A program made the translations under genes and the position numbers. Source: Planctomycetia bacterium (GTDB lineage: Bacteria > Planctomycetota > Planctomycetia > Pirellulales > Thermoguttaceae). Taken from it: DNA of 55,512 bases. The stretch lies in the NCBI GenBank assembly GCA_030527705.1, contig JAUNAI010000001.1, positions 1 through 55,512 of the forward strand. Reading direction: 5' to 3'. Under the pieces are notes generated by a model that saw only the letters and a program-made list of their open reading frames with translations, was not told where the DNA came from and ran no database searches. Positions 1 to 53,974 of this stretch are shown here, in pieces (position 1 is the stretch's first letter; each line of letters opens with the position of its first letter).

Positions 1-339
1 GGTTGTTACCCCGGTTGTTGCGCCTGTCGTAGCACCGATTGTGGTATTCTGACAGATTTCCAGAAAAAAAGTTCAGGTTTATTCTGGAACAAAACTAGAA
101 CAAGAATCGTTGTATCGTAGCCACCTTCGGAAAATGTAAAGTCCGTTAATGTGGCTACTTTCGTTGTACTTGCGCTTTATTCACCGACAGGATCATGTTC
201 TAATTGAGTCGTCATTGACATTCTTATAGGAGATGTGATTTAACTGGGATACAATTTAACTGGGTGGCAAAGTACTCGCAAGAACGGAAACAGGGAAAAT
301 ACAATTTTTAGCATCTCCATAAGTTTCTCCTTAGTGTTT

Positions 340-1347
340 TTACATGAATTCTTTTAATCGTGCGCGTAATTCGGTGTAGTGGAAGAGTCGGTGATAGTCG
401 ATAAGTCCGGAAATTGCCCAAGACTTGAAGACTTTCTTGCCGGATTCGACGAGGATGGCGATGGGGTTGAGACCACCGACGACGATGGCTCCGATATAAC
501 CGTCGCTCACGGGGATACCGAGAATGGGCTGGTTGGGGAGACCGAATTTCAGGAAGCCGCCGAGACCGATTTTTTCCATACGCTCGATAATTCCCTCTAC
601 ACGCTGTCGGCTTTCGTCCGGTAATTCACGGAATGCTGCGCCGATAAGTCCGTTGCCGGTACGAATTGCGCCGTGGTAATTCGTCAGTCCTGCACGAATG
701 AAAATTGCGAGCGGGTCGACAGTCGTGGCGTTATAATTGATGATTTCTGTGAAGCGCGTCGGTTTTCCGTTGCGGAGTTCCAGAAGTCCGCTGAAGCGCG
801 ACGCCATCGGGATGCCGTGTTTCAGGAGAACGCCGTTAAACGTGACGGAGCAGACGGTACAGAAACCGACATGACCGGGTGGGATAACCGTTTCGTACCA
901 CTTTTCGCCCGGTTTCAGGATGGAAACGAGTTCTCCCATCGCATAACCCTGCTCGAAAACCTGATAAATATCGTCGAGACACGCGAAAAAGTCGGAAATC
1001 GGCAGAAGCGACATATTCGCGATGACCTCGCCGGAACAGGTGGGCAAGTCGAACGTCATGCGGTACGTCATCAGGTCGATTTTTGCAGAAAGATAACCAA
1101 GACGCGTAACGGAGTCAGAACCCTGCAACTCACGGATTCCGAGCGGCGTGATCATTCGTCCTTTTCGTCCCTGCGAGGCGGTAAAACCCTGTTGGTCGAG
1201 CGTCTGGAGATACATTCGGACCGCCCGCTCACTATAATGCACCCCAGCAGCGTCCAGAATTTCGACGATTTGCGCGGAAGTCAGGACTTTTCCTTCTTCT
1301 TTGAGAACCCGTAAAATTTCGGTTTTTTTCTGGTCTTTTTTGTCCAT
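340..1347 (-). CDS. nrpR: NrpR-like nitrogen-responsive transcriptional repressor (winged HTH + one DUF128/NrpR regulatory domain)
   Basis: 335-aa ORF starting at ATG 1347. The N-terminal segment ILRVLKEEGKVLTSAQIVEILD...ERAVRMYLQTLDQQGF...GRKGRMITPLG matches my recollection of the wHTH and linker of archaeal NrpR/DUF128 proteins. Its length fits HTH plus a single DUF128 domain. It lies on the same strand as gdhA and just downstream of it. Confidence 0.65.
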   Translation of the reverse strand: MDKKDQKKTEILRVLKEEGKVLTSAQIVEILDAAGVHYSERAVRMYLQTLDQQGFTASQGRKGRMITPLGIRELQGSDSVTRLGYLSAKIDLMTYRMTFDLPTCSGEVIANMSLLPISDFFACLDDIYQVFEQGYAMGELVSILKPGEKWYETVIPPGHVGFCTVCSVTFNGVLLKHGIPMASRFSGLLELRNGKPTRFTEIINYNATTVDPLAIFIRAGLTNYHGAIRTGNGLIGAAFRELPDESRQRVEGIIERMEKIGLGGFLKFGLPNQPILGIPVSDGYIGAIVVGGLNPIAILVESGKKVFKSWAISGLIDYHRLFHYTELRARLKEFM

Positions 1348-1744
1348 GAGCGTGAATGATACAGGTCTTAAGGAAATATAGAATGACGATTTTGTGAAAT
1401 TTTACATAAGGAGTTTAATTTTAAACGGTAGGTAAATACCGTTAATCCCAGAGGGACTTGGTTTTACTCACTGTGGACTTTAGTCTACAGTTAGAATTAC
1501 ATCTCTTTCAGAGATAGATAGAATATCCGAGAGTTTACGCTCCCGGATAAAAATATATATGAAGACAGAGGGAAGGTCAGAAGTATTTTATTCTGATAAT
1601 CTACTACAGACTAAAGTCTGCAGTTAGTAAACGAAGTCCTACGGACTAAGGTGCTTAAGCGCCATTCAGAGAACGTCTTTATGTGTGTTTTTAATAACAT
1701 TTTTAGAAGACATAACCCTGCCCCTTCCGTCGCCTTCAGCGACA

Positions 1745-1763
1745 CCTCCCCTAATAGGGGAGG
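1745..1763 (-). terminator. perfect 8-bp hairpin just after the gdhA stop (no U-run)
   Basis: CCTCCCCT-AAT-AGGGGAGG lies 12 nt downstream of the gdhA stop codon. Confidence 0.3.
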
Positions 1764-1774
1764 CCGTGAGTGAA

Positions 1775-3154
<1,380 letters not shown>

Positions 3155-3608
3155 TTAAAGTGCGCAACATGCACACAGAATAGATTTCTAATAGGTTTCG
3201 GGAATGAATTTCCATAAAACGTTGTTATTGTATCAGATTATCGGAGATTTACAAGGCCCCATTTAGCGTAATTTTGCCATAAAAGTTTTTTGAACGGCAG
3301 AGTTTCCGCGTCAAATTGGCCAAAATTCACAAATTTTTTAAAATAAATGACTTTTGGAGAATTTTACGGCAAAATATCGGCAAATATTTTTGGAATTTTT
3401 TTGCCGATATGGTGTATTTGAGCCGTCTCCTCACAAAAGCGCGACTAATTCGGTAGTTGCTCAGGAATTTTTGAGAAATATTGGAAAATTCTTTGCTGAA
3501 ATTTCCAGAATTGAGATTTTTCTGTCACACCTACCCGTTATGTTTAATAGAGGAAGAGAAGAGTTCTTCCTGAAAGACTATATAATATTAATATAAGGAG
3601 AAATTTTC

Positions 3609-3977
3609 ATGAAATTAGCGTATGTATTGGCTTTTGCGTTGGCGTTCGGAATGGTTCAGATTTCTTGCGCACAGAGCTGGTTCCATTCCAACGCCGATGG
3701 TACCTTCGCCGGTCGTTCGAGTTTATTGGGTGACACAACCTACCATTATAACTCGAATGGTACTTCCGCTGGTCGTTCGACTTCATTGGGTGACACAACC
3801 TACCATTATAACTCGAATGGCACTTCCGCTGGTCGTTCAAGTTCATTGGGTGGCACAACCTATCACTACAACGCGGACGGCAGTTTGGCAGGACGTTCCT
3901 CATCTTTCGGAGGCAGAACCTACCATTATAATTCCAACGGCAGTTCTGCGGGTAACTCGTGGAGCTGGGGTTGGTGA
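3609..3977 (+). CDS. small secreted protein built from five tandem 20-aa repeats (weakly YD-repeat-like)
   Basis: An AAGGAG RBS lies 7 nt upstream of the ATG. The N-terminus is a signal peptide (MKLAYVLAFALAFGMVQISCAQ). The mature part is 5 x (T)YHYNSNGTSAGRSSSLGDT and ends in NSWSWGW. Confidence 0.75.
   Translation: MKLAYVLAFALAFGMVQISCAQSWFHSNADGTFAGRSSLLGDTTYHYNSNGTSAGRSTSLGDTTYHYNSNGTSAGRSSSLGGTTYHYNADGSLAGRSSSFGGRTYHYNSNGSSAGNSWSWGW
3675..3971 (+). repeat. five in-frame 60-bp tandem repeats inside the small secreted protein gene
   Basis: Units align with 60-nt periodicity. Units at about 3729-3788 and 3789-3848 are 56/60 identical by hand count. The outer units are more diverged. Confidence 0.9.
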
Positions 3978-4060
3978 TTCCTGAAACACTCTTCTTCTGA
4001 CTGATTCATTCTATATTCCCGCTACGCTCTTGTGGTGGGAAATTTTTTTGGTTTGGCGGC

Positions 4061-4089
4061 TTGACAAAATGAGACGAAAACGCTAAAAT
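4061..4089 (+). promoter_or_regulatory. sigma70-like promoter TTGACA-N17-TAAAAT
   Basis: Perfect -35 hexamer at 4061-4066, 17-nt spacer, TAAAAT at 4084-4089. It lies about 170 nt upstream of the aminopeptidase ATG. Confidence 0.55.
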
Positions 4090-4259
4090 AAAGGGTAGGA
4101 TATCCATTTCACTTGAAAATTCAGGGAAGGGCGGGCTTTTCGGTAGTTATTTCTGCAACGCGAAAAGACGGTGAAGCAGAATTTTATAGTGTATTGGGTA
4201 GAAATGTTTCTTTTTTATAAATATCACCCCAAAATCATAACCCGAAAGGATGTTTTTTC

Positions 4260-5486
4260 ATGAAAACCGAAATTCTCCGAAAATACGCAGAACTCATCGC
4301 TCGCTGTGGTCTGAACGTGCAGGAGGGGCAGGAAGTCATGATTACCGCCGACCTTGACCAGCCGGAATTTGTGACGATGTGCGTCGAGGAATGTTACCGC
4401 GCCGGCGCGAAGAAAGTCATCGTGGATTGGGTTCATCAGAAAGTCACGAAATTACACTACGAAAACCAGTCGCTCGAGACGCTTTCCCACCTTGAAAAAT
4501 GGCAGTTGGAACGGTGGCAGTGGCAGACGGAACAGTTACCGTGCAAGTTGTTCATCGAATCGGACGACCCGGACGGATTGGCGGGAATCGACCAGGAAAA
4601 AGTCTCCAACGCGCGTCAGAAATGGTTCCCGTTGATTAAACCATATCGGGATAAGATGGAAAATCGCTATTCCTGGTGCATCGCCGCTGTGCCGGGAAAA
4701 GCGTGGGCGAAGAAAGTTTTCCCGGAATTGAGCGAGGAATCGGCTGTCGAAGCACTCTGGGACGCAATTCTGAAAACGTCGCGTGCGCTGGAGGGTGAAC
4801 CGCTCGAAAATTGGAAAGAACACAACGCGGATTTGAAACGCCGATACGATTATCTGAACGCGCTGAAACTCCGCTCGTTGCACTATGAAAGCGCGAACGG
4901 AACGAATCTGACGGTCGGACTGATTGACGGTTGCAATTTCCTCGGCGGCGGTGAAACGACGATGGGCGGACAGTTTTTCAACCCGAATATTCCGTCGGAA
5001 GAGATTTTCACCACCCCACGGGCGGGCGAGGCGGAAGGAATTGTCTACGCAACGAAACCGTTGTCGTATCAGGGACAGTTAATTGAGAACTTCTGGATTC
5101 GTTTCGAAGATGGGCGGGCGGTCGAAGTCGGAGCGGAAAAAAACGAAGCACTCTTGCGGAAAATGATTTCGATGGACGACGGTGCGGCGAAACTCGGCGA
5201 GTGTGCGTTGATTCCGTACGATTCCCCAATCAACAACACGGGTATTCTCTTCTTCAACACCCTTTTTGACGAAAACGCGAGTTGCCACCTTGCGCTGGGT
5301 CACGGATTTAGCAACCTCTTGGAGGGTTTCGAAAACCTGACGATGGAAGAGTGCTACGCGCGTGGCATTAACGACTCGATGATCCACGTCGATTTCATGA
5401 TTGGCTCCTCCGACCTTAACATCACTGGCACCACCTCCACCGGCGCAACCGTCCCCATCTTCCGCAACGGTGCATGGGCGTTTTGA
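4260..5486 (+). CDS. M29-family aminopeptidase (AmpS/PepS/aminopeptidase T-like)
   Basis: 408-aa ORF. Its N-terminus (LRKYAELIARCGLNVQEGQEVMI) and C-terminus (SCHLALGHGF...IHVDFMIG) are typical of thermophilic-type M29 aminopeptidases. Confidence 0.85.
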   Translation: MKTEILRKYAELIARCGLNVQEGQEVMITADLDQPEFVTMCVEECYRAGAKKVIVDWVHQKVTKLHYENQSLETLSHLEKWQLERWQWQTEQLPCKLFIESDDPDGLAGIDQEKVSNARQKWFPLIKPYRDKMENRYSWCIAAVPGKAWAKKVFPELSEESAVEALWDAILKTSRALEGEPLENWKEHNADLKRRYDYLNALKLRSLHYESANGTNLTVGLIDGCNFLGGGETTMGGQFFNPNIPSEEIFTTPRAGEAEGIVYATKPLSYQGQLIENFWIRFEDGRAVEVGAEKNEALLRKMISMDDGAAKLGECALIPYDSPINNTGILFFNTLFDENASCHLALGHGFSNLLEGFENLTMEECYARGINDSMIHVDFMIGSSDLNITGTTSTGATVPIFRNGAWAF

Positions 5487-5509
5487 GAAAGGAAGGTCGT
5501 CTGTTTGAA

Positions 5510-5550
5510 GCATGGTTTCTATTTTTTTTGATATGAAACCATGCCGTTTT
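5510..5550 (+). terminator. hairpin terminator candidate after the aminopeptidase gene
   Basis: Perfect 10-bp stem GCATGGTTTC/GAAACCATGC (5510-5519 / 5535-5544) followed by CGTTTT. Confidence 0.5.
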
Positions 5551-5594
5551 CGGTTAATCATTTTTTCAGGATTTTAATTGCAGGATGAATCAAA

Positions 5595-6819
5595 ATGAAG
5601 ATTGAATCCTTAAAGTTGACCAATTTCAAAGCGTTTAGAAATGCAAAAATGGAAAAGATTCCTAAATTTTGCGTCATTGTCGGTGCAAATGGAACGGGAA
5701 AAAGTACGCTTTTTAATTTATTTGGCTTCTTAAAAGCTGCCCTAAATAGTGACGTTCATACTGCGCTTCTGCGTTTAGGTGGAAATCGAGGATTTCAGGA
5801 AGTCAGAAGCCGAGGAGCAACTGAGAATATTTCAATAGAATTAAAATTTCGTAATACTCCAGATGGAATTTTGAAAAAAAACAAGAAGTGCAAGGTAAAA
5901 CTCCATTAATTACCTATTTTCTTGAAATAGGAGAGGAAAATGGTCATGCGTATGTAGAGCAGGAATACTTGCAATACCGTCGTGGTAGTAGAGGCAAGCC
6001 GTGGCGTTTTCTTGATTTTAGACGTGGAGAAGGTTCCGCCGTAATCAATGAATTAGACGACACAACAGATATTCGCAATTTGAAACGCGAAAACCAGAAA
6101 TTGCGTTCACCGGATATTCTTGCAATTAAAGGACTTGCCAATTATGAGCGTTTTCCGGCAGTGGTAAGTCTTGCTACGTTAATTGAAAACTGGCACGTTT
6201 CGGATTTTCATATCAGTCGTGCACGACCGGAACAGGAAGTGGGTTTTGCCAATCACCTTTCTCGGGAAGGTGAAAACCTGTCGTTGGTAATTCAATTTCT
6301 TTATGATCGTCATCGGGATTTATTTAATAAAATAATGACACGGTTACAGCAATCAATCCCTGGAATTACTTCCGTTGAGGCGAAAACGACGGAAGAGGGG
6401 CGTGTTTTGTTAAAATTCCATGACGGAGCTTTTAAGGATCCATTTTTGGCGCGTTACGTATCCGATGGAACGATTAAAATGTTAGCATATCTCACGTTAC
6501 TTTATGACCCTACCCCACATCCATTACTATGTGTTGAAGAACCGGAAAATCAACTTTATCCATCTCTTTTGTATCCTTTAGCAGAAGAGTTTCGAGCGTA
6601 TACCAACAGCGAAAATAGTCAGGTTTGGGTTTCTACGTACAGCCCGGATTTCCTGAACGCTACGGAAATGGATGAAGTTTTTTGGTTGGAAAAAAGAATG
6701 GATATACGCAAATTGTTCGTGCTTGTGACAATCAACAAATTCGAACCTATATGGAAAATGGGGATCAGATGGGATATTTGTGGAAAGAGGGACTTTTCGG
6801 AAAGGCGGATCCTAAATGA
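5595..6819 (+). pseudogene. AAA/ABC-type ATPase (AAA_15/AAA_21-like, OLD-family-like ATPase) disrupted by two -1 frame breaks
   Basis: Walker A GANGTGKST and Walker B-like LLCVEEPENQLYP are present. The reading frame breaks in an A8 run (5874-5881) and again in an A6 run (6690-6695). Adding one nt at each site restores about 408 continuous codons, reading ...GILKKKQEVQGKTPLITYFLEIG... and ...FWLEKKNGYTQIVRACDNQQIRTYMENGDQMGYLWKEGLFGKADPK*. The restored stop TGA (6817-6819) overlaps the next ATG as ATGA. Confidence 0.75.
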
Positions 6820-7382
6820 AAGAACTTATATGTCTGCTTGAAGAACCTTCGGCTAAAGAGATGTTGACAATTGTTTGTAATCAGATTGTTCCAAAATCAA
6901 TCGAAACGCATATTATTGCATTTGAGGGAAAACGGGATTTAGCAAGTAAACTGGTTAAAAGAATCCAATTATGGCAAAATCCAGAAGTGGTATTTCTGGT
7001 TATGCAGGATCAGGATAGGAAAGATTGCATTGGCGTAAAATCAGAGTTACAGGAACTTGTAAATCAAACAGGAAAAGCAGATCGGACTATTATCCGTATC
7101 GCGTGTCAGGAATTGGAAAGTTTTTATTTTGGTGATCTTGAGGCGGTCGAAAAGGGACTTGATATTAAAGATTTACGGAAATATAGCAAGAAAAAATAGT
7201 ACCGAGTGCCTGATGATATTCCATCTCCATCTGAAGCGTTGAAGAAAATAACCAAATATAAATATCAGAAAGTTTGTGGTTCCAAAGCAATCGCGCCTTA
7301 CTTAAAATTAGCACAAGGGGAGAATTCCTCTCACAGTTTTCAGGTTTTGTTGCAGGGAATACAGAAATTGATAGAATTATAA
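6816..7382 (+). pseudogene. DUF4276-like (TOPRIM-like) partner protein interrupted by an in-frame TAG
   Basis: The ATG overlaps the ATPase stop. The N-terminus has LLEEPSAKE (conserved Glu) and VMQDQD (DxD), as in TOPRIM-type domains. An in-frame TAG sits at 7197-7199. The same frame then continues with protein-like sequence (YRVPDDIPSPSEALKKITKYKYQKVCGSKAIAPYL...SFQVLLQGIQKLIEL) to TAA 7380-7382. The family assignment is from memory only. Confidence 0.55.
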
Positions 7383-7411
7383 ACGTTAAACCTGATATTT
7401 CTGCTTAAAAC

Positions 7412-7441
7412 CGGGGAGAGTATATATCCGTATTCTCCCCG
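7412..7441. terminator. hairpin between convergent genes (DUF4276-like and metG)
   Basis: Perfect 8-bp stem CGGGGAGA/TCTCCCCG with a 14-nt loop. There is no clean T-run on either side. Confidence 0.4.
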
Positions 7442-7468
7442 TAATGTTATAACTATTTCAGATTTCTC

Positions 7469-9538
7469 TTAATGCACTCTCTGTCCCGGGACGGCACCGG
7501 TGTCGGGGGAGAGGACGAAGATGTCTTTACCTCCGGGGCCGGCGGCGCAGATCATCGCTTCGGACATGCCGAACTTCATCTGGCGAGGCTGGAGGTTCGC
7601 GACACAGACGACGAGGCGTCCGACAAGGTCTTCCGGTTTATATGCGGATTTGATGCCCGCGAAAACGTTTTTCGTCACGTCGCCACCCAGCGAGAGCGTC
7701 AGGTGAAGCAATTTTCGCGCTTCTGGAACCTCTTCCGCCATCACAATTCGCGCGACGCGGAGGTCCACCTTACAAAAATCGTCAATCGTGCACATTTCTT
7801 CCAGTGGCTCGTCCGTCAACGGTTGCGCACTGTCGTCCCACTGCGATTTCGGAGCGTTTTCTTCCGTACCAGCCGTGTTTTCCGTATCGACCGGTTTATT
7901 TTCTTCTTTCGTTTCTTCGATCATAGCGTCAATCACTTTCTCATCCATTCGAGCCATTAAATGACTAAATTCATTCACTTTCGTACCACAAAGCGGTTTC
8001 TGTACGCTTTCGATACTCCACGATTCGACCGTTTCGTCGAGCAACTGCGCCGACTGTTCCGCGAGTTTCGGCAGAATCGGCGACAAATAAATCACCATCT
8101 GACGGAAGATATTCAGCGCAATCGTGCAGACGTCCTGCAATTCCTGCTGTTTCGCCGGGTCTTTCCGTAACGTCCACGGCGCGGAATCTTCCACGAATTT
8201 ATTCGCACGGTCGCCAATTGCCATCACTAACCGCGTCACGCGCGCGAAGTCGCATTCTTCGTACGCTTGCGCAATTTCTTCCATCTGTGACGCGCCAAAC
8301 GCGAACAGTCCGCCGTCTTCCGGGTAGGTCGCCGACAGTCCGAGGTCTTTCATGAATTTTGCGGTGCGACTTGCCAGATTCACGAGTTTTCCGACCAAAT
8401 CCGAGTTGACTTTCTCGCGAATGTCGCTGAAATTCAGGTCTACATCGTCCACGCGCCCCGTCAGTTTCGAAGCGAAATAGTAACGTAAATAAGCCGGGTC
8501 AAGGTACTTGAGGTACGTGTCCGCCTTGATGAAGGTCCCTTTCGATTTCGACATTTTCTCGCCGTTCGTGGTGAGCATACCGTGAATGTGGACTTTTTCC
8601 GGAAGGTTAAATCCGGCGGTCTTCAACATGGCAGGCCAGAAGAGCGTGTGGAAATACGTAATGTCTTTTCCGATGAAATGATGAATTTCCGTTTCGGGAT
8701 TTTTCCACCAATCTTCCCAGTTTTCGCCGTTTTTCTCGCACCAGACGCGGGTAGAACCGATGTATCCGATCGGCGCGTCGAACCAGACGTACCAGTAATT
8801 TCCCGGAGAGTCCGGAATCTCGAAACCGAAATACGGCGCAGGACGCGAAATGTCCCAGTCACGGAGTTCGTCGCAGAGGAAATGCCCGGCGAGATAATTC
8901 GCAATTTCCGGTTGGAGGTGATTTCCCTGCTGAGTCCATTCTGTGAGGAACGGGCGTAAACGCTCGATTTCGACCATTAAATGCTCTGCGTCGCGCAGTT
9001 CCGGCGTGGTTCCCGACAACGCGCTGATGGGGTCTTTCAGGTCCGCCGGGGAGTAAGTTGCGCCGCACTTGTCGCACGAATCGCCATACTGGTCCTGCGC
9101 TCCGCATTTCGGGCAAGTCCCCTTCACGAAACGGTCTGCAAGGAACGTTCCTGCCTGCGTGTCGAAGAGTTGCGTCACTTTTTTCTCGTGAACGAGACCC
9201 GCCGCACGGAGAGCTGTCCAGATTTCTTTACATGACTCGTAATTTTCCGGAGCATTGGTGCTTCCGTAATTGTCGAAACGGATTCCCATGCCGGTAAAGG
9301 ACGCAAGATGCTGTTCCCGGACACTCGCGATGAGTTCTTCCGGCGTAATTCCCTCACGCTGCGCACGAATCATAATCGCCGTTCCGTGCGTGTCGTCGGC
9401 ACAGATGTAAATGCACTTATTTCCGCGAAGACGCTGCGCTCGCACCCAGATGTCGGTCTGAATATATTCAACGAGATGCCCGATATGAATCGGACCGTTC
9501 GCGTACGGCAACGCGCTTGTAACGAGGATTTTTCGCAT
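7469..9538 (-). CDS. metG: methionine--tRNA ligase with C-terminal tRNA-binding (Trbp111-like) domain
   Basis: 689 aa with the HIGH motif ([12 protein letters not shown]), KMSKS, and a CxxC...CxxC knuckle. A GAGGAG RBS precedes ATG 9538. Confidence 0.95.
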
Positions 9539-9590
9539 GTCAACTCCTCAGAAATGGAGAAAAATGAAACCGATTTGATACGATTTTATT

Positions 9591-9618
9591 ATTATACATG
9601 ATTTTGAAATAACTTCTA
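9591..9618 (-). promoter_or_regulatory. candidate metG promoter TAGAAG-N16-TATAAT preceded by a C-tract
   Basis: The minus strand reads CCCTCCCCC-TAGAAG-16 nt-TATAAT. The -10 is perfect and the -35 is weak. Confidence 0.4.
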
Positions 9619-9849
9619 GGGGGAGGGAGAGCGAAGAGTAAATGAAAAAACAATCCCAATGGAATCGGTATTATCGTAAAAATCATTTCTTTCGATTTTC
9701 TTTTTTTAAATGGGGGGTTTTCTGGAAAAGCGAAGGCGAAAAAGACACAGAAGGGGGCGTAAAAGTGACGATTATTCCAAAAGATACGTCTAAGAGGGTA
9801 AAAAGTTGAAAAATTTTGAAGAAAATAGTAAAATTTCCTTAAAAACTTG

Positions 9850-9878
9850 TTGACCTAAATCGGTTTTGTAATTACACT
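9850..9878 (+). promoter_or_regulatory. sigma70-like promoter TTGACC-N17-TACACT upstream of the PilM-like operon
   Basis: Hexamers at 9850-9855 and 9873-9878. A-tract/GAAAAT-rich DNA lies upstream. Confidence 0.5.
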
Positions 9879-10063
9879 ATAGGAATATAACTATACTTAT
9901 AGGGAAACTGTTTTTTGATTTAATTTTATACCCGACACACTATAAAATTTCGCTTCTCCGTCGTTTCACGTTGTAGAAACGATTGCTGGAAGGACCGCCC
10001 TTCGAAAGAATTTTCAAGTGGAATTGGTATATCAAAAAATCGCATGTAACAAGGATAATTCAG

Positions 10064-12463
10064 ATGGCTCGAAGTAATGCAGTCTGGGGAATTGACGTTG
10101 GAAACTGTTCGTTGAAGGCAATGCGCTGTTTTGTGGAAGACAGCGACCCTTCCATGTTGGTCGTAGATGCGGTCGATTATATCGAGTATCCGCAGATTTT
10201 GACCCAGCCGGGTGTCAATGCTGACGAGGAGATTCGTGAAGCGTTTAAACTGTTCCTTTCGCGCAATAAAATTAAGGGGGACAAAATTGCAGTTGCGATG
10301 GGGGGGCAAAACGGATTGGTACGTTTCCTGAAATTGCCACCGATTGAACCGAAAAAGATTCCGGATATTGTGAAATACGAGGCAAAACAGCAGATTCCGT
10401 TCCTGAACGAAGTAATCTGGAAGTGGCAGCGTATTGGTCAGCAGGGGTCGGCAAGTGCGTTTCCGTTGGAAGTAGAAATCGGTCTTTTTGCGATTAAGCG
10501 TGACCAGATTTACAAGACGATTGGAACGTGTGACTCGCTGAGCATTCCGGTAGATAACATTCAGTTAACGCCATTGGCTCTGTATAATTATCTCATGCAC
10601 GACGAACTGCATGACTTACCGAGTCTGGACGATTATGACCCGGAAAATCCGCCACCGTACGTGGTGATTCTCTCGATGGGGACGGACGCGACGGACCTGA
10701 TTCTCACGAATGGTTTCCGCGCGTGGCAGCGTAACTTGCCGATTGGTGGGAATAACTTCACGAAAGCTCTTATGAAAGAGCTGAAGCTGACGTTTGCGAA
10801 AGCGGACCATCTGAAGCGGAATTTGGCGACCAGTCAGGATAAAGTGGCGGTTTTGCGTGCGATGCAACCGGTGTTTAATAGTTTCCAGAACGAAATCCAG
10901 CGTTCATTGGGTTTCTTCTCGAGTCTTGATCCGAACGCGCAGTATGAGCGGGTCATTGCGTTGGGGAACGCGATGAAACTGACCGGGCTGACGAAATACC
11001 TGTCGCAGAATCTGGGGATTGAGGTTGCACTTGGAAAATCATTTGGCAGTCTGGATACATCGAATTTGGCGGACAGTTCTCTTATTACGGAGAATATGTC
11101 GACATTCGGAACCTGTTATGGTCTGTGTCTTCAGGGACTGAAAAAAGGCTCGGTAAACACGAACTTCGTGCCGAGTGAAGTCGTGATGGCACGTATTATT
11201 AACGCGAAAAAACCGTGGATGCTCGCAGCCTCAACGCTTCTGATGCTGGGAGCGACGATTAATTTTGGTGCTCAGGTAGGCATTCAGGATTCCGTTGCGG
11301 AAAAAAATTGGCAGGTGCACGAGTCGAAAGCCGAGGGCCTTTCCAGTAAAGCGAAAGCGTATGTGGATGCCGTTACACAGCATGAAGCAACGTTCCAGGC
11401 ACTCGACGCGACAGGAGCGATATTCCTCGATAACTTTAAAAATCGTACTGCGTGGATGGAGCTGGTTCATGGGCTGAATTCATGTCTGCCAGTGGCGCCG
11501 AAGCCAGAAGGTGCGAATCTGACGGCTGAAGAAGTGATGGCGCGTGAGGAACTTCATATCGTGAATATTGAAGCGCAACCGCTCAATGATTTCGAGGCAG
11601 CGGAATGGATGCGGATGGCGCTTGACGCGACGGATGGAAGAATTCTTTCATCGAAATTGCGAGATAAATATGAAGCTGCGGTAGGTGGTAGTGGTGATGA
11701 AGAGGAAGAAAGCGCGGACGAAGAAAGTGGTGTAGATGCCATTATCGCGCAGGCTCTGGCACCAGAACCGATTGTTGCGTTGAGTGGTGAAGAGGGGGAA
11801 GAGGGCGAGGATGGTGAAGAAGCGGTTGCGGAAGAAGAATCTATGGATGAAGATTCCGAAGAAGGCGCGACTGCTAAACCTCCGAAATGCTGGGTAGTCT
11901 CCGTGTACGGTTATCACTGGCATAACAGTAACGAAGCGCAGGTGAAAATGGATACTTTCGTGCGTCGTAACTTCCTCGATAAGATTTCGGGTGAAGTGGA
12001 ATGTACATTTAAGTTGCCGATTCTGAAATCTGCGCAGGTTGTGGACCCGAATATGACGGAGCCGGAAACGGTGACGATGCGCGACTTGGGTGTGCGTTAT
12101 CCGATTCTGGTGAATAAGAAAATTGAGCGCATGTATGACGGCGCGTGGAAAGACTTGCGGAGACTTGAAATTCGTGATGAATTCCAGGATACGGACTTGA
12201 CGCGGACTGGTGGCACTAATGCAGCGATGATGGCGGAAATGGCAGCTGGTGGTGTCGTTGATCCGACCAATCCGCAGGCGACAGAAATGATGGCGTTAAG
12301 AATGGGAAGGCGGTATGATTTTGTGATTCATTTCCTTTGGGAACCGACTTCGGCAGTGGATCGTGCGGAAACTCGTGTCGCGATTCAGGCGGCGGAAGAA
12401 ACGCGTAAGCAGGCGGAAGCGGAAGCAGAGGAAATGGCGGAAGATGGGGAGGACGAAGAATAA
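10064..12463 (+). CDS. PilM-like actin-fold ATPase fused to a transmembrane helix and a large extracytoplasmic region (PilM-PilN / GspL-like architecture)
   Basis: I favour ATG 10064 (AAGGA RBS at 10050) over the ORF-track start at 9983. The N-terminal ~390 aa align to the PilM pattern (WGIDVGNCSLKA..., IPFLNEVIWKW, NLPIGGNNFTKALMKE..FAKADHLK, VIALGNAMKLTGLTKYLSQNLG). One TM helix (PWMLAASTLLMLGATINFGAQV) follows. The remaining ~380 aa contain coiled-coil-like sequence and a D/E-rich insert (about 11684-11866). Confidence 0.8.
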   Translation: MARSNAVWGIDVGNCSLKAMRCFVEDSDPSMLVVDAVDYIEYPQILTQPGVNADEEIREAFKLFLSRNKIKGDKIAVAMGGQNGLVRFLKLPPIEPKKIPDIVKYEAKQQIPFLNEVIWKWQRIGQQGSASAFPLEVEIGLFAIKRDQIYKTIGTCDSLSIPVDNIQLTPLALYNYLMHDELHDLPSLDDYDPENPPPYVVILSMGTDATDLILTNGFRAWQRNLPIGGNNFTKALMKELKLTFAKADHLKRNLATSQDKVAVLRAMQPVFNSFQNEIQRSLGFFSSLDPNAQYERVIALGNAMKLTGLTKYLSQNLGIEVALGKSFGSLDTSNLADSSLITENMSTFGTCYGLCLQGLKKGSVNTNFVPSEVVMARIINAKKPWMLAASTLLMLGATINFGAQVGIQDSVAEKNWQVHESKAEGLSSKAKAYVDAVTQHEATFQALDATGAIFLDNFKNRTAWMELVHGLNSCLPVAPKPEGANLTAEEVMAREELHIVNIEAQPLNDFEAAEWMRMALDATDGRILSSKLRDKYEAAVGGSGDEEEESADEESGVDAIIAQALAPEPIVALSGEEGEEGEDGEEAVAEEESMDEDSEEGATAKPPKCWVVSVYGYHWHNSNEAQVKMDTFVRRNFLDKISGEVECTFKLPILKSAQVVDPNMTEPETVTMRDLGVRYPILVNKKIERMYDGAWKDLRRLEIRDEFQDTDLTRTGGTNAAMMAEMAAGGVVDPTNPQATEMMALRMGRRYDFVIHFLWEPTSAVDRAETRVAIQAAEETRKQAEAEAEEMAEDGEDEE

Positions 12464-12595
12464 TTCGTCGCTATGGAGACTCCGAGAGCGGGAAAAAGGA
12501 AAGTTAATTGGAGCCTGAAACCGTGAACGTGGGGAATCTGAAGCAGAAACCTAACCGAATGACTGTAAAACCTTTCACAGGATGGGATATATTCG

Positions 12596-14644
12596 ATGAG
12601 TAAATTTCAAATTGCCTTAACCTATATTAAGAAATACATTTTTTGGGTGATTTCCATTATTTGCCTGTTGGTCACGATGATTACCAGTAGTGCAATTACG
12701 GGTCATAAAGCCGACAGTTTCGACTCGCGTAAATCGGCGATTGAGGGACGTTTTTCCGAAATGCAGCGTCTTGCTGGGCAGGATAACCCGAATGAGCCGG
12801 TAGTGCTCCAGAAGCAGGCGGATGTGAAGAACCTGAAGGATACAATTCTGGATGCGTGGAATCAGTTGTATCTGCCGCAGGCGAATTTTTTCGAGAATGG
12901 TTGGCCGGAATTCCGTAATCGTGATGGTCAGCTGGACGCGAATGCGTCGTACTATCTCGATGAAATGAAGAGAATGTGGGCATCACAGACGATTTATGAA
13001 TCGCCTGCAAAATCTTCTTTACCGGGAGATGTCGCCGACGCATATCGAAATTACGTAATGCAGTCGCAGGAACGTGATTTCATGAATCGTTACAAGATTT
13101 ATGTTCCGGAAAATGTTCAGGGAGCGAATGGTGCGGTCGTTGCGGCAACGATGCAGGGACTCACCGACGAAACCGGGACGGCTTCTCAGTTGCCGACAGA
13201 GGGAAATCTGACGTGGGATGAAACGAATCGACAGCAGATGCGGAATCGTTTTATGCGTTTAAGTCGCGCGATTGGTGATGCGAAAGTGAATTCGACGCGG
13301 AAACTTCTGGTGGTTCAGGAAGATATCTGGACGTATAACCTACTCCTGAATGCGATTACGCTCATGAATAAGAACTGTGAAGGTTCTCATGATGCGGTGG
13401 TAAAGCGTATTTTTGGAATCGATATTGCAGAAGATGCTTCTACGTTGAACCCGAATTCGAGTGGTAGTGGCAGTGGAACTAGTTCCCGTTCTGAACGCCG
13501 TCTGGGTTCATCAGGTGAGAAAAATGAGAATATCGTATTTAACGCGGAAGAACGTGTCGTTTCCATTCCGGTTCCGGAAGTGCGAAATACGGAAGAAATG
13601 TCAGAATCCATGATGAGTGGTGAACTGGAAGAGGAAGAAGGCGCTGGAAATGTCGATGAAGAATTCTTGGAACTTTTCGATTATCGTTATTGCGATATTT
13701 ATGGAAATTTCATGTCGGCAGATCAACTTACGGAGTTTTTGAAAACGAAACCGGAATATAAATTGATGCCGGTTCACGTACATATTTTGATTGCGCAGGA
13801 GCAGATTCCGCAGTTTATGTTGAATTGTCTGAACGCGGACATGCCGATTTATATTCATCAGATCAGTGTTCGTGCACGTGATCTGGACGCAGTTCCCCAT
13901 CAGTTGACGATTGAACCGGAATTACCGACGACGAGTGAGGATGGAACTGGAATGGCTCCGGTACGGCCAACACGTACTGAGCGTAGAACTGCAACGCAGA
14001 CTCCGACTGGTAATCAGGAAGGAATTACTGAGGCGATGGGGGGTACGACGACTAGCAGTCTGACGGGAGAAGTCGATAAACGGAAGCCGGGTGATGTAGA
14101 ATTCCAGCTGTGGGGCATGGTCTGTGTGTTTAATGCGCCGGACGAGAGTAAGTATGATGAGATTCTCGGTGAAAGTTCGGAAGATAGTGATGAAGAGGCG
14201 GATTCCGAAGATAGCGATGAGGAAGAATCTGACAGCGAAGATGGTGAGGATTCTGAAGCCAGTGAGGATAGCGATTCTGAAAGTTCGGATGACGCTGATG
14301 AGGCGGAAGAGTCGGACGCCAGCGACGATACGGATGAGGTTACCGATGAATCTGCGGATGAATCAGAAGACGTAAGCGACGCGGAGGCTGAGGCTGAAAC
14401 TGATGCGGAGGCGGATGCTGTGGAAGCAGAATCGGAAGACTCTGGAGCGGTAACAGATGAAGAAGCGGTGGAAGATGACGCGGAAACGGTAGAGGAATCT
14501 GAGGAAGAATCTTCTGAAGATTCATCAGAGAAATCAGTTGCTGAGGAGTCTGCTACTGAGGAAGCCACGGAAGATACTGAAGAGGCGGAAGAGGCAGAGA
14601 ATGCTGAGGCCGCAGACGCGGAAGCCGAGGAAACGGAAGAGTAA
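12596..14644 (+). CDS. large bitopic membrane protein (N-terminal TM anchor) with a 157-aa polyacidic C-terminal tail; function unknown
   Basis: 682 aa. TM helix YIFWVISIICLLVTMITSSAI is near the N-terminus. The central region has ordinary composition. The tail (14171-14641) is almost only D/E/S/A/T/V with a single Lys. Confidence 0.8.
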   Translation: MSKFQIALTYIKKYIFWVISIICLLVTMITSSAITGHKADSFDSRKSAIEGRFSEMQRLAGQDNPNEPVVLQKQADVKNLKDTILDAWNQLYLPQANFFENGWPEFRNRDGQLDANASYYLDEMKRMWASQTIYESPAKSSLPGDVADAYRNYVMQSQERDFMNRYKIYVPENVQGANGAVVAATMQGLTDETGTASQLPTEGNLTWDETNRQQMRNRFMRLSRAIGDAKVNSTRKLLVVQEDIWTYNLLLNAITLMNKNCEGSHDAVVKRIFGIDIAEDASTLNPNSSGSGSGTSSRSERRLGSSGEKNENIVFNAEERVVSIPVPEVRNTEEMSESMMSGELEEEEGAGNVDEEFLELFDYRYCDIYGNFMSADQLTEFLKTKPEYKLMPVHVHILIAQEQIPQFMLNCLNADMPIYIHQISVRARDLDAVPHQLTIEPELPTTSEDGTGMAPVRPTRTERRTATQTPTGNQEGITEAMGGTTTSSLTGEVDKRKPGDVEFQLWGMVCVFNAPDESKYDEILGESSEDSDEEADSEDSDEEESDSEDGEDSEASEDSDSESSDDADEAEESDASDDTDEVTDESADESEDVSDAEAEAETDAEADAVEAESEDSGAVTDEEAVEDDAETVEESEEESSEDSSEKSVAEESATEEATEDTEEAEEAENAEAADAEAEETEE

Positions 14645-14685
14645 TATCAAGTTGGGGACCGCTGGTCCGTGGGGAATTCAGGGAG

Positions 14686-14720
14686 GTTTCCAGAATTTAA
14701 CAGAGTAGTTCTGGAAACCC
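14686..14720 (+). other. perfect 11-bp intercistronic stem-loop between operon genes 2 and 3
   Basis: GGTTTCCAGAA (14686-14696) / TTCTGGAAACC (14710-14720) with a 13-nt loop and no T-run afterwards. Confidence 0.6.
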
Positions 14721-14760
14721 CTTAAAACTCGATAAAAATCAAAATATACAGGAATAAACG

Positions 14761-16944
14761 ATGAAGGGTAAATTGGATGCAGATAAGCTGAAGGAGCTGT
14801 GTATTAATCATTTTGAGAAGGTGATTTTCGCTCTTTTAGTTATGTTTTTTCTGTCGATGGTCCTTTCGGCCTTGAAGGTAGAACCCTACACGAAAAAACC
14901 GGAGGAACTCAGCTCGGCCTGTAGTCGGGCGGAATCGAAATTGAACGAGGAACAGGAAGTTATCCCGGTTGAGCGGAATTATGACAGCTTGATTAATGGG
15001 ATTCAGGAACAGTTGCCGAGTGCGAATTATATGACGACAGCGGCGTGGAATCCGATTCTCTCGAAAGAGGGGCAGAAGCGTCGTGCTCCGCGTGCGTTGG
15101 CAATTCAGAATCTGCAGGTCTGTGAGTGGCATGGAAGTGTTCAGAAACCACAGCGTTCAGCAGAAGAGATGGAAGAAGAACCGGTTTTTGATGACGGTTT
15201 CGGTGGTGTAGAACGGAGCACGACTGAGGGTGTGCGTTGTTGTATCCTGATTGGTGAGTTGCCGAAACTGGAACAGGAAACAGAATTTGCGAATAAGTTA
15301 GGGACACCGTTACTTTCGGATTCTCGTACTGGGATGTATGCAGGAATGAATGGTCAGACAGCGGATGGTCCGTTCTATTATGATTATACGGTGGAACGTG
15401 CGCTGGTGCCGGCCGATGGCGACTTGGAGAAGATTAAGGAACAGGACTGGGTGGATTTACGGAAACGGCGTAATAAGAAGTTATCTGTGAATGAATCCCG
15501 GATTCGTTATTTTAATGGTGATAGCGAGTTGGGTGGTCACGGTGGTGGCGGTGCGGATATTCCGGACAAATATCAGCCACCGCAGATTTATCGGAAGCCG
15601 AAATTGGTGGCGACGGATACTGCGGATGGAAAGAAGACTGGTCGAAATGGGCGACAGTCTGTGAATTCGAACATGGTTCCTGGTATGGAAATGGGCGTGA
15701 ATGGAATGATGACGAATGGACTCGTTCCTGCGAAAGACGCAACGCTTATGGTTCCGTTGCCGCAAGTGGTGCAGTCGAGTAATCAGACACAGTTTAACTG
15801 GAATGTGTATCTTCCATATCCAGAAGAATTCGAGTTGGATTTAATGGTCGATGGTCAGCGTGTCCGAAAGTCGAAATCTGCGGATGATGACGCGGATGGT
15901 GAAGAAGATGAAGACGCGGAAGACGGTGAGGAAGATGAAGATTATGATGATGAAGAAGACGATGAAAAACTGGAAGCTATAGACCCGACGATGATGGGTG
16001 GTGAAATGGAAAAGGCGGCGGACGTGAGCCTGTTCCGTTATGTCGACTACACGGTCGAGCCGGGTAAACAGTATGTTTATCGAGTGAAAGTTCAGCTTCA
16101 TAATCCGAACTACCAGTATGAGCCGGCGTTTAATCTGGAAAACCCAGATGATGGAAAGGTGAAATATCTGGAGAGCGACTGGTCGAATGTGACGCTACCG
16201 GTCTCGATTCCTCTGGATAATCATTTCTATTTGGCTGGTTTCAGCAAGTTTTATCCTCGGACGGCGGCGGATCGGAAAGACCCGAAAATCAAGAAGTGGT
16301 CTCCGTATGTGAGCCTGATGCCGGTGAAATTTAATGAGGATAACGGTAATGAAGACTTCACACACTTTGATGAAATCACGGTTCGACTGGAACAGGTGAA
16401 AAAATCGTCGAAGAAAAAGAAGGTTGTGAAGAAGGAAGAGCCGATGCGTCTGGCACCGGGACAGTTACTGAACTTGCTGGTGGAAGAAGACACGATTCGT
16501 CAGCTCGGAAATATGAGCTATCAGACAACTTCCTACGGAAATCGTTTTGAGGATGAAGAGGAAGAGAAAGATCTGAAACAGTTCAACACGGGATTCATTT
16601 TATTGGATGTACGTGGTGGTGACGAGTTGTACGCGCCGATTGATGAAAAAGATTTTGAAGGTGCGGACGAGGCGATCAAGAAGAATCCGCGTGGGATTTA
16701 CTCACCATCGATGGTGCTTCTGATTGGTCCGAAGAATGATTTTATTATTCAGTCGGAACTGGAAGACGTGGCGGACGTATATCGTCGGCGTGACACGATG
16801 GAAATGAATCAGCAGTTTATGGAAGACATGTCATCGACGCAGGAAGAAGAAACCCCACGTTCACGGCGTTCACGTCGGAATAAGGATGGTGAGGTACCGC
16901 CAGAACCGACTCGGAGTAGTTCACGTGACCGTCTGAATCGGTAA
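14761..16944 (+). CDS. large bitopic membrane protein with D/E-rich insert and possible Ig/FN3-like segment; function unknown
   Basis: 727 aa. TM helix VIFALLVMFFLSMVLSAL is near the N-terminus. An acidic insert lies at 15878-15975. The segment DYTVEPGKQYVYRVKVQLHNPN resembles terminal strands of a beta-sandwich. The C-terminus is basic. Confidence 0.8.
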   Translation: MKGKLDADKLKELCINHFEKVIFALLVMFFLSMVLSALKVEPYTKKPEELSSACSRAESKLNEEQEVIPVERNYDSLINGIQEQLPSANYMTTAAWNPILSKEGQKRRAPRALAIQNLQVCEWHGSVQKPQRSAEEMEEEPVFDDGFGGVERSTTEGVRCCILIGELPKLEQETEFANKLGTPLLSDSRTGMYAGMNGQTADGPFYYDYTVERALVPADGDLEKIKEQDWVDLRKRRNKKLSVNESRIRYFNGDSELGGHGGGGADIPDKYQPPQIYRKPKLVATDTADGKKTGRNGRQSVNSNMVPGMEMGVNGMMTNGLVPAKDATLMVPLPQVVQSSNQTQFNWNVYLPYPEEFELDLMVDGQRVRKSKSADDDADGEEDEDAEDGEEDEDYDDEEDDEKLEAIDPTMMGGEMEKAADVSLFRYVDYTVEPGKQYVYRVKVQLHNPNYQYEPAFNLENPDDGKVKYLESDWSNVTLPVSIPLDNHFYLAGFSKFYPRTAADRKDPKIKKWSPYVSLMPVKFNEDNGNEDFTHFDEITVRLEQVKKSSKKKKVVKKEEPMRLAPGQLLNLLVEEDTIRQLGNMSYQTTSYGNRFEDEEEEKDLKQFNTGFILLDVRGGDELYAPIDEKDFEGADEAIKKNPRGIYSPSMVLLIGPKNDFIIQSELEDVADVYRRRDTMEMNQQFMEDMSSTQEEETPRSRRSRRNKDGEVPPEPTRSSSRDRLNR

Positions 16945-16973
16945 TTGGTAGTGGATATGTGAGTGATTCACGG

Positions 16974-17012
16974 AAAACAGACGCGGAGCGTTTCGCGTCT
17001 GTTTTCATTTTC
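16974..17012 (+). terminator. intrinsic terminator closing the three-gene operon
   Basis: Perfect stem AAAACAGACGCG/CGCGTCTGTTTT with an 8-nt loop, running into TTTTCATTTT. Confidence 0.8.
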
Positions 17013-44181: not shown

Positions 44182-44312
44182 ACGGTCGATTTTTCAGCGG
44201 TGTAATGTTCCTTTTGCAGGAGTGCCTTGGACCGGGAAATGCTCTGGTCTGTCTTGATGACGATTCCGTGGTGGATGTCGGGAGGCACTCCATGTGATTT
44301 GATTTGTTATGT

Positions 44313-44330
44313 GGCGGAAGGCCTTCCGCC
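44313..44330 (+). other. perfect 18-nt palindrome in the nusA-infB spacer
   Basis: GGCGGAAGGCCTTCCGCC lies immediately upstream of the GGGAG RBS proposed for infB. Confidence 0.7.
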
Positions 44331-44344
44331 AGGGAGTGTGTCGA

Positions 44345-47300: not shown

Positions 47301-47941
47301 TGTTCGACTCGCTGGGTAGCAAGGAGGTGAAGACGCTGAATATTATTCTCCGTACGGATGTGCGTGGTTCGATTGAGGCGATTCGCAAGGAACTTGGCAA
47401 GTTGGAACATGAAGAAGTCCAGATTGCAATTCTGCAAGCATCGGTCGGTGGTGTGACGGAAGCGGACGTTCAGTTGGCGGATGCGTCGGACGCGATTATT
47501 ATCGGATTTAACGTGGTTCCGGACGAAAATGCGCGAGTGTTAGCGGAACGGAAAGGCGTTCAGGTTCGGCGTTATGATATTATCTATCAGTTGACGGCTG
47601 ATGTGCGTGCTGCGTTGGAAGGTATGCTCACGCCGGAAGAACACGAGAAAGAACTCGGACGAGCGCTGGTTCAGCAGGTGTTCCAGATTTCGAAAGTTGG
47701 TGCAGTGGCTGGTTGCCGAGTTATTTCGGGCACGATTCCGCGTGACTGTAAGATTCGTATTATTCGTAATAACCGTGTAATTGGAGCGTATGCGCTCGAC
47801 ACGCTGAAACGCGAAAAAGACGACGTGAAAGAAGTCCGCGACGGTTACGAGTGCGGTATGCGTCTGGCTGGTTATAACGATATCAAGGAAGGCGACGTGT
47901 TTGAAGCGTTCCAGATTGAGTCGGTTGCGCGTACGTTTTAA
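44345..47941 (+). CDS. infB: translation initiation factor IF-2 with a very long low-complexity N-terminal extension
   Basis: The C-terminal ~590 aa are canonical ([24 protein letters not shown]). The N-terminus (M)[13 protein letters not shown] is typical for IF-2. I favour TTG 44345, which lies 9 nt after GGGAG. ATG 44309 is the alternative. Confidence 0.92.
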
Positions 47942-53925: not shown

Positions 53926-53974
53926 AAAAAAAACGTTGTTTCATATACAGGGGAAATGGGGAGACTGGGTGAGT

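Follow-up and report, generated by a model that had tools for sequence, protein, structure and literature searches.

The described system closest to the operon studied here is the "pili-like" gene cluster Amuc_1098-1102 of Akkermansia muciniphila, which encodes a secretin, two membrane proteins, a PilM-like protein and a pilin-like protein (PMC5332112). This cluster is now named MUL2 and has been tied to the attachment and uptake of mucin or fucoidan; it has been linked to intracellular mucin accumulation and to a type IV-like pilus, and the locus has been traced within the Verrucomicrobiota only (PMC12418764, PMC13174399). Our subject is a three-gene operon at positions 9850-17012 (+ strand) of a 55.5-kb stretch of DNA from a Planctomycetia bacterium (contig JAUNAI010000001.1), the whole of which is called the window in the following. 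Its three co-directional + strand genes (g1, g2 and g3) have 799, 682 and 727 codons, as the initial annotation had stated, and these lengths are borne out by the open reading frames (ORFs) and by the conserved start of g1. We consider that the operon probably encodes the alignment subcomplex, or assembly platform, that reaches from cytoplasm to periplasm in a secretin-linked type IV filament machine of the kind found in the Planctomycetes-Verrucomicrobia-Chlamydiae (PVC) superphylum, a counterpart of PilM-PilN-PilO-PilP.

The likeness to MUL2 lies in g1, which is nearest to the Amuc_1101 family over a stretch that includes its transmembrane (TM) helix and stalk (1.5e-52), in g2, whose model has its best structural matches among Amuc_1100 structures, and in a gene order of PilM-like gene, Amuc_1100-like gene, further membrane protein and secretin, both systems belonging to the PVC superphylum. 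The two differ in that g1 reaches 179.3 bits where the Amuc_1101 equivalog cutoff is 650, the g2 of the window has no family match, g2 is twice the size of Amuc_1100 and g3 several times that of Amuc_1099, no secretin gene is present in the window, and there is no Amuc_1102-like pilin gene upstream, where cmk-plsC-rpsA are found in the relatives and metG in the window.

The type IVa pilus machine PilM-PilN-PilO-PilP/PilQ (P. aeruginosa, M. xanthus and T. thermophilus; 3jc8, 2ych, 5eou) shares with the operon the PilM fold and the PilN NLLP-type motif of g1, bitopic partner proteins in which a helical stalk and an alpha/beta core are predicted besides the TM helix, a secretin gene that comes last in the order (in 24 of 51 relatives), and a location away from pilin and ATPase genes. 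Unlike in that machine, PilM and PilN form one polypeptide here, the periplasmic parts have two to four times the size and contain low-complexity inserts, neither g2 nor g3 is matched by a PilO or PilP model, g1 has altered nucleotide-binding motifs in second and third place (S-x-G and G-N), and the secretin of the relatives measures 1,150-1,600 aa. Where PilP is a lipoprotein, g3 is TM-anchored and has a putative FN3-like module.

The type II secretion system (T2SS) offers a further parallel in GspL-GspM-GspC/GspD, since GspL is laid out like g1, with an actin-like domain in the cytoplasm, a single TM helix and a domain in the periplasm, GspM resembles PilO, and GspC, a beta-domain protein held by a TM anchor, makes contact with the secretin. 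The operon differs from this system in having no sequence match to the GspL or GspC families, with PilM and PilN signatures instead, and in its gene order and the lack of linked pseudopilin genes. MshI-like proteins, of the mannose-sensitive haemagglutinin (MSHA) type of system (MshI/J/K/L), also join PilM-like and PilN-like parts.

Among the papers searched, none describes the planctomycete operon. The initial annotation had called the module a candidate undescribed one, which holds for the planctomycete architecture itself and needs qualifying for g1, whose nearest family, Amuc_1101, belongs to the published Akkermansia cluster. The principle of a type IV pilus (T4P) alignment complex is familiar; what has not been described is the architecture, with a fused PilMN protein, two large unannotated partners and a giant secretin, and this arrangement is widespread.

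The first gene encodes a probable PilM-PilN fusion

The product of g1 (10064-12463, +; 799 aa from its ATG) begins with a predicted cytoplasmic actin-fold domain of the PilM type (10064-11134, +; aa 1-357). Residues 9-357 match Pfam PilM_2 (PF11104) at 3e-20 (72.8 bits, cutoff 27), and g1 matches TIGR01175 at 1e-27 (96.8 bits, which is under the subfamily cutoff of 133). PilM of M. xanthus (3jc8) is matched at 4e-21 by the single sequence and at 1.5e-33 by the family profile, and the PilM chains in the PDB at 4e-21 to 3e-6, so that the fold first recognised by eye does score as PilM. The FtsA models remain under threshold (PF14450, 25.4 bits against 31.8; TIGR01174, 18 against 175.85), and neither GspL/T2SSL families nor PilN models were found for g1 at E <= 1 in Pfam and NCBIfam. 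The top curated family is the NCBIfam Amuc_1101 family PilM-like pilus complex protein (NF045709), which matches aa 1-473 of g1, including the TM helix and stalk, with model positions 1-459 of 608. Given its score, we take g1 to be a clear relative of this family and not a member of it.

Directly after the PilM domain comes a PilN-type N-terminal motif (11153-11173, +; aa 364-370), which reads VNTNFVP in the window and lrTNLLP in the family, with T366, N367 and P370 invariant. In a profile search the TNLLP of the family aligns onto the RINLLP of 5eou, an engineered P. aeruginosa PilM:PilN(1-12) chimera, and against the g1 family profile this chimera scores 1e-10 compared with 1e-8 for PilM alone. 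These alignments point to a putative PilN-type peptide present in cis in g1 (TNFVP, aa 366-370, in the window). The only hydrophobic helix of g1, which is also its top hydropathy peak, follows at 11216-11272 (+; aa 385-403), and both this TM helix and the KKPW just before it are conserved in the family. The remaining ~395 residues form the predicted periplasmic part (11273-12460, +; aa 404-799), consisting of a helical stalk and of conserved blocks (W.EL..IN.CLP, ELHI.N.E.Q, GYHYHN and RFDFVV.F.W.P) split by an acidic low-complexity insert. Judged from its sequence, g1 is thus a natural PilM-PilN fusion that is GspL-like in layout, which agrees with the arrangement of PilM domain, PilN-type part, TM helix and periplasmic part originally put forward for it.

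Of the three nucleotide-binding motifs listed for g1 in the initial annotation, all are found where they had been placed, and the second and third do depart from the consensus. Phosphate 1 is intact (GIDVG), and D11, G13 and K18 are invariant in the family. Phosphate 2 reads S204-x-G206 (SMGTDAT) instead of the expected D-x-G, and in the adenosine motif G301-N302 (LGNAM) stands in place of G-G, both variants being fixed in the family. The functional PilM of M. xanthus likewise has no Asp in phosphate 2 (NAG). Because phosphate 1 is intact and M. xanthus PilM shares this departure, neither a loss of nucleotide binding by g1 nor the degenerate ATPase suggested as possible in the initial annotation can be concluded from the motif changes.

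The two partner proteins

Like g1, the products of g2 (12596-14644, +; 682 aa) and g3 (14761-16944, +; 727 aa) have a single TM helix with Lys/Arg on its N-terminal side, and all three are predicted to be single-pass proteins with the N-terminus inside. The TM helix is at aa 16-34 in g2 and at aa 22-40 in g3, and each is followed by more than 640 periplasmic residues, in keeping with the single N-terminal anchor and the more than 600 further residues noted at the outset. The initial annotation could not assign them by eye to PilN, PilO, PilP, GspM or GspC, and they are indeed not ordinary members of these families by the searches made, as no significant match was obtained in Pfam, NCBIfam or the PDB sequences with the single sequences, or in the PDB with 42-member family profiles, and scanning both families member by member against Pfam revealed no recurring family. 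The 42-member alignments of g2 and g3 returned chance matches only from the PDB, in which Amuc_1100 was not listed even at E <= 10.

For g2, the predicted regions are the TM helix, a helical stalk, an alpha/beta core at ~aa 234-512 and an acidic tail at aa 523-682. Its AlphaFold model, which like that of g3 is of low confidence and was built from a shallow alignment, contains the TM helix, long helices and an alpha/beta core assembled from aa 234-277, 375-427 and 500-512. When this model was compared with 350,542 PDB chains using Foldseek, the top matches were three crystal structures of Amuc_1100 (probability up to 0.85, E ~0.3), followed by PilO of P. aeruginosa and M. xanthus. The top structural matches are thus to the protein encoded beside the PilM-like gene in Akkermansia. 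Seven of the 42 members of the g2 family also match the NCBIfam family Amuc_1100_fam (NF038287) weakly, the best at 2.4e-4 where the cutoff is 180 bits, and in the member from locus L030 the match falls on the beta-alpha-beta segment; the g2 of the window itself has no match to this family. With moderate confidence, we regard g2 as an Amuc_1100/PilO-like candidate, which would be at best a distant relative of Amuc_1100 and PilO.

The regions predicted in g3 are the TM helix, an alpha/beta region at ~aa 110-280, an acidic insert at ~aa 366-405, an FN3-like module at ~aa 420-495 and a C-terminal beta region at ~aa 516-666. In Foldseek its model gave no more than weak FN3/Ig-like matches, which fit a conserved motif, LFR(Y/F)xDxTVEPGKxYxYRV...NPN, and an FN3-like module is proposed. 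The family is large: counted as representatives of clusters at 50% identity, it comprises at least 2,286 proteins at E <= 1e-3 and still 1,144 at E <= 1e-10, with lengths of 425-860 aa throughout, and its members carry the NCBI label "hypothetical protein". By the searches above, g3 appears to belong to no described family, and the triplet defines two sizeable protein families for which Pfam has no model. Whether or not a lineage has the secretin gene next to the triplet, its g3 retains the conserved C-terminal domains.

All three proteins carry low-complexity inserts at fixed positions across loci L001-L085 (aa 545-600 in g1, 523-682 in g2 and 366-405 in g3). These inserts are strongly acidic in the clade of the window, where the g2 tail is 52% Asp+Glu, and rich in Pro, Ala and Gly in other Pirellulales.

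Distribution, gene order and the giant secretin

To collect relatives, three contigs were looked up and genomes representing single species were scanned, which gave 80 loci, and hidden Markov models were iterated on the ORFs of these loci. Relatives of g1 occur in at least 570 species-level genomes. The closest homologues are from metagenome-assembled genomes of Thermoguttaceae and other Pirellulales, the nearest of them from ruminant gut samples. For g2 and g3, a word-based homologue search picked up none but close relatives (14 and 20), which reflects its limited sensitivity and not a narrow distribution. The conservation of the triplet in related genomes, which the initial annotation had proposed to examine, is evident from the order g1-g2-g3 being kept in every related locus with enough sequence. 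In pairwise BLASTP comparisons with the window proteins, the relatives score 5e-39 to 7e-12 for g2, and 2e-17 and 2e-7 for g3, which confirms that they are homologous.

Of the 51 loci whose sequence extends 2.5 kb or more beyond g3, 24 continue directly with a gene for a giant secretin of ~1,150-1,600 aa, confirmed by Pfam, in which the C-terminal Secretin domain is the only recognised domain. Three examples (L001 16272-19751, L019 17096-21382 and L078 10810-15657) have 1,159-1,615 aa, and their 950-1,400 N-terminal residues contain no Pfam domain except for a weak, sub-threshold TPR_14 in L001.

Genes for an ATPase or a platform protein accompany the triplet in two places: MshEN-T2SSE and T2SSF genes stand immediately upstream of g1 in L002, and a PilB-like ATPase is encoded 3.5 kb downstream of the triplet in Aeoliella sp. 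SH292. The other neighbours are housekeeping genes, typically cmk-plsC-rpsA upstream. In the window, the triplet is flanked by metG, an MBL-fold (metallo-beta-lactamase) hydrolase and thrS, as had been annotated, and then by the ribosomal-protein/secY and nusA/infB regions. Since pilMNOPQ operons are normally unlinked to pilin and ATPase genes, such flanks are uninformative.

The planctomycete locus L002 also contains, directly upstream of the triplet (1-9755), a separate MSHA-like cluster coding for a PilO-domain protein, a T2SSB/C-like protein, a 772-aa secretin, a TPR protein, a PAS kinase, a response regulator, a STAS protein, MshEN-T2SSE and T2SSF. The two clusters lie side by side, the MSHA-like one has its own PilO-domain protein and a secretin of normal size, and the triplet is a separate, additional system in this organism.

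A candidate assembly platform and its alternatives

By analogy with the established PilMNOP architecture (M. xanthus, 3jc8; PilM:PilN structures 2ych and 5eou), the PilM domain of g1 would form a ring on the cytoplasmic side, onto which an ATPase of the PilB type and a platform protein of the PilC type, both encoded elsewhere in the genome, would dock, and the PilN-like stalk covalently joined to it would pair with g2 in the inner membrane and periplasm via their helical stalks and alpha/beta cores. The third protein, in the position of PilP/GspC, would be anchored in the inner membrane and, through periplasmic domains rich in beta structure, extend as far as the N-terminal part of the giant secretin. 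In all four proteins (g1, g2, g3 and the secretin) the periplasmic parts are oversized, as would befit the wide periplasm of planctomycetes, and the secretin and other core genes of the window genome are presumed to lie outside the window. The output of such a machine may be an adhesive pilus, a secretion pseudopilus or an uptake device.

Several results weigh against this assignment. No secretin, T2SSE/PilB or T2SSF/PilC homologue was found among the window ORFs of at least 80 aa, and no prepilin motif in any frame of the window, as anticipated by the initial annotation, which had listed pilin, ATPase, platform and secretin genes as missing. ATPase or platform genes are linked to the triplet in 2 loci only. 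In a tree of g1, the window and nine other loci form a clade in which none of the ten has an adjacent secretin gene, compared with 24 of 41 outside it. The structural evidence comes from models of low confidence (pLDDT, the predicted local distance difference test score, is 52 for g2 and 55 for g3, the confident blocks of the latter being ~aa 110-280, alpha/beta, and ~aa 420-495, beta), neither of which gave a significant Foldseek match (best E 0.3 for g2 and 0.06 for g3). Direct comparison of the g2 family with the Amuc_1100 sequence (verified to be 100% identical to 6kny_A) by hhalign and hmmsearch was not significant, as only low-complexity sequence aligned and shuffled controls scored equally high. 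No similarity to PilP or GspC was found for g3 or its 42 family members in Pfam, NCBIfam, the PDB or Foldseek, and g3 agrees with these proteins only in its gene position and its GspC-like TM anchor. Finally, hhalign comparisons among the periplasmic part of g1, g2 and g3 showed no similarity beyond the TM helix and helical stalk. A paralogy of the PilN/PilO type within the triplet was not shown by these comparisons.

The simplest history behind the distribution of the secretin is an ancestral g1-g2-g3-secretin operon, from which the secretin gene was uncoupled in the lineage of the window. The triplet had been called an orphan, which is apt for this lineage only; the unit itself is ancient, very widespread among planctomycetes and conserved throughout the pirellulids.

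An unlikely alternative is that the triplet forms a platform of the T2SS type, analogous to GspL-GspM-GspC, that drives a short pseudopilus for protein secretion or polymer import through a secretin. The layout would fit, with GspL (actin-like domain, TM helix and periplasmic part), GspM (PilO-like) and GspC (TM anchor and beta domain) followed by a secretin; single members of the g2 family weakly match GspM (0.042) and GspB (0.001), a T2SSB/T2SSC-like protein and T2SSE/F genes are found near the triplet in L002, and an involvement in polymer uptake is indicated for the related locus of Akkermansia (PMC12418764, PMC13174399). However, g1 scores as PilM and Amuc_1101 with no GspL family match, and it carries the NLLP-type motif of PilN. 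The M-N-O-P-Q gene order is moreover typical of type IVa pilus operons and not of gsp operons, and no pseudopilin genes are linked to the triplet in any of the loci examined.

It is also conceivable, and in our view quite improbable, that in the clade of the window the triplet is a secretin-independent envelope scaffold, either an FtsA/PilM-like anchor for budding division or a tether of the inner membrane to the wall or outer membrane. The lack of adjacent secretin genes throughout this clade, the housekeeping flanks, the departure of motifs 2 and 3 from the consensus and the lack of FtsZ in planctomycetes (PMC11131199) could all be accommodated by such a scaffold. What speaks against it is that the FtsA model is sub-threshold for g1 while PilM_2 is well above its cutoff, that g1 contains the PilN motif and TM fusion, and that sister lineages have these very proteins, their C-terminal domains conserved, in one operon with a secretin; the flanks, as stated above, carry no information. 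An FtsA-like division protein was rejected for g1 on the basis of the scores, the PilN motif and the secretin synteny. The initial annotation had left a choice between a highly divergent T4P/T2SS subcomplex and a different machine built on a PilM/FtsA-like fold. The former is favoured by the secretin in 24 of the 51 loci and by the T2SSE and T2SSF genes in one locus.

That the triplet is a decaying remnant left by the loss of the secretin gene would agree with the missing secretin at the locus across the whole window clade and is nonetheless very improbable, as none of the three ORFs is disrupted, identities among many members of the clade amount to 50-91%, the promoter, start-codon context and terminator are preserved, and the family-invariant residues are kept. 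An origin of the triplet from mobile or foreign DNA was rejected in view of its uniform composition and housekeeping flanks, and according to PADLOC the triplet is not a known defence system.

The enlarged periplasm of planctomycetes receives polysaccharides and proteins that are taken up whole. Dextran is bound by pili-like fibres that emerge from their crateriform structures (PMC5394234), and according to a 2025 review the mechanisms and players of planctomycete macromolecule uptake are still unknown (PMC12673574). In this context, the alignment-subcomplex assignment could be extended: the triplet and the giant secretin might be the planctomycete homologue of MUL2, forming the trans-envelope base of the polysaccharide-binding fibres of the crateriform structures and the machinery of "selfish" macromolecule uptake into the enlarged periplasm. 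We hold this extension to be doubtful and its link to the fibres and to uptake speculative, since it draws only on the MUL2 homology and on protein size. If true, it would identify the long-sought machinery of "selfish" uptake, and the large periplasmic domains would be adaptations for spanning the periplasm. A conserved planctomycete operon with an Amuc_1101-related PilM-PilN fusion in any case provides concrete gene targets for the uptake question, and even when read conservatively it shows the extent to which the PilMNOP scaffold can be remodelled.

Transcription unit

The intergenic gaps between g1 and g2 and between g2 and g3 are 132 and 116 nt. Since the triplet genes abut or overlap in relatives (L002 and L011), g1-g2-g3 are regarded as one operon and one conserved transcription unit. 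The promoter (9846-9882, +) consists of a -35 element TTGACC (9850-9855), a 17-nt spacer and a -10 element TACACT (9873-9878). Its score as TTGACC-N17-TACACT is a modest 9/12, in a scan that was barely above chance (17 found against 10.7 +/- 3.4 expected), yet the block CTTGTTGAC...ATTA[C/A]ACTATA stays the same across six genomes, although the proteins they encode are only ~70% identical. Because this block is unchanged while the neighbouring intergenic DNA has diverged, we consider it a phylogenetic footprint and accept it as the promoter, which agrees with the promoter originally placed at 9850.

Alignment of the upstream regions gives a 5' untranslated leader of ~180 nt (9885-10063, +), the transcription start being predicted from the position of the -10 element. 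The mechanical ORF of g1 begins at a TTG (9983) upstream of the ATG at 10064. This ATG and its AGGA-containing context, AAGGATAATTCAGATGGCTCGAAGT, are identical in five relatives, and the sequence upstream is not conserved. As the context is kept in these relatives and the upstream stretch is specific to the window, the 799-codon reading from ATG 10064 is the correct one and the TTG extension spurious. Roughly 100 nt of the leader (~9960-10040, +) have no counterpart in five close relatives, and it is this stretch that creates the spurious TTG-initiated extension.

The operon ends with an intrinsic terminator (16973-17012, +), formed by a 15-bp G+C-rich hairpin (16973-17006) and a T-rich tail. 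It was overlooked by a simple scan and recovered by folding, and its strength, already claimed in the initial annotation, is apparent from the folding energy of hairpin and T tract (-23.4 kcal/mol, z = -5.6), which none of 200 shuffles equalled. A second hairpin, of 17 bp and with no T tract after it, lies between g2 and g3 (14680-14723, +), in a region (14645-14760) that folds with -33.4 kcal/mol (z = -3.3). This hairpin may serve in processing or stabilising the mRNA, or may act as a partial attenuator inside the operon.

Other features of the window

Upstream of the operon, at 5888-6841 and 6816-7199 (+), an AAA_21 ATPase and a DUF4276 protein resemble the components of HEC-01, a candidate defence system in PADLOC (4e-129 and 1e-45). 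The two ORFs overlap and the matches are partial (profile positions 88-357 of 395 and 1-126 of 190), so that the system may be truncated or degenerate, as far as the profiles indicate. Three further ORFs on the + strand, of 471, 448 and 353 aa (1685-3100, 48786-50132 and 53936-54997), have no Pfam match. The window also encodes, at 340-1347 (-), a regulator that combines an HTH_12 domain with NrpR regulatory domains (PF01995, 2e-76); it occurs here in a planctomycete, whereas the family is chiefly known for the nitrogen repressor of archaeal methanogens. A TPR protein of 834 aa is encoded at 50224-52728, and translation initiation factor IF-2 (44309-47941, +) is 1,210 aa long, with ~620 residues ahead of its first recognised domain.

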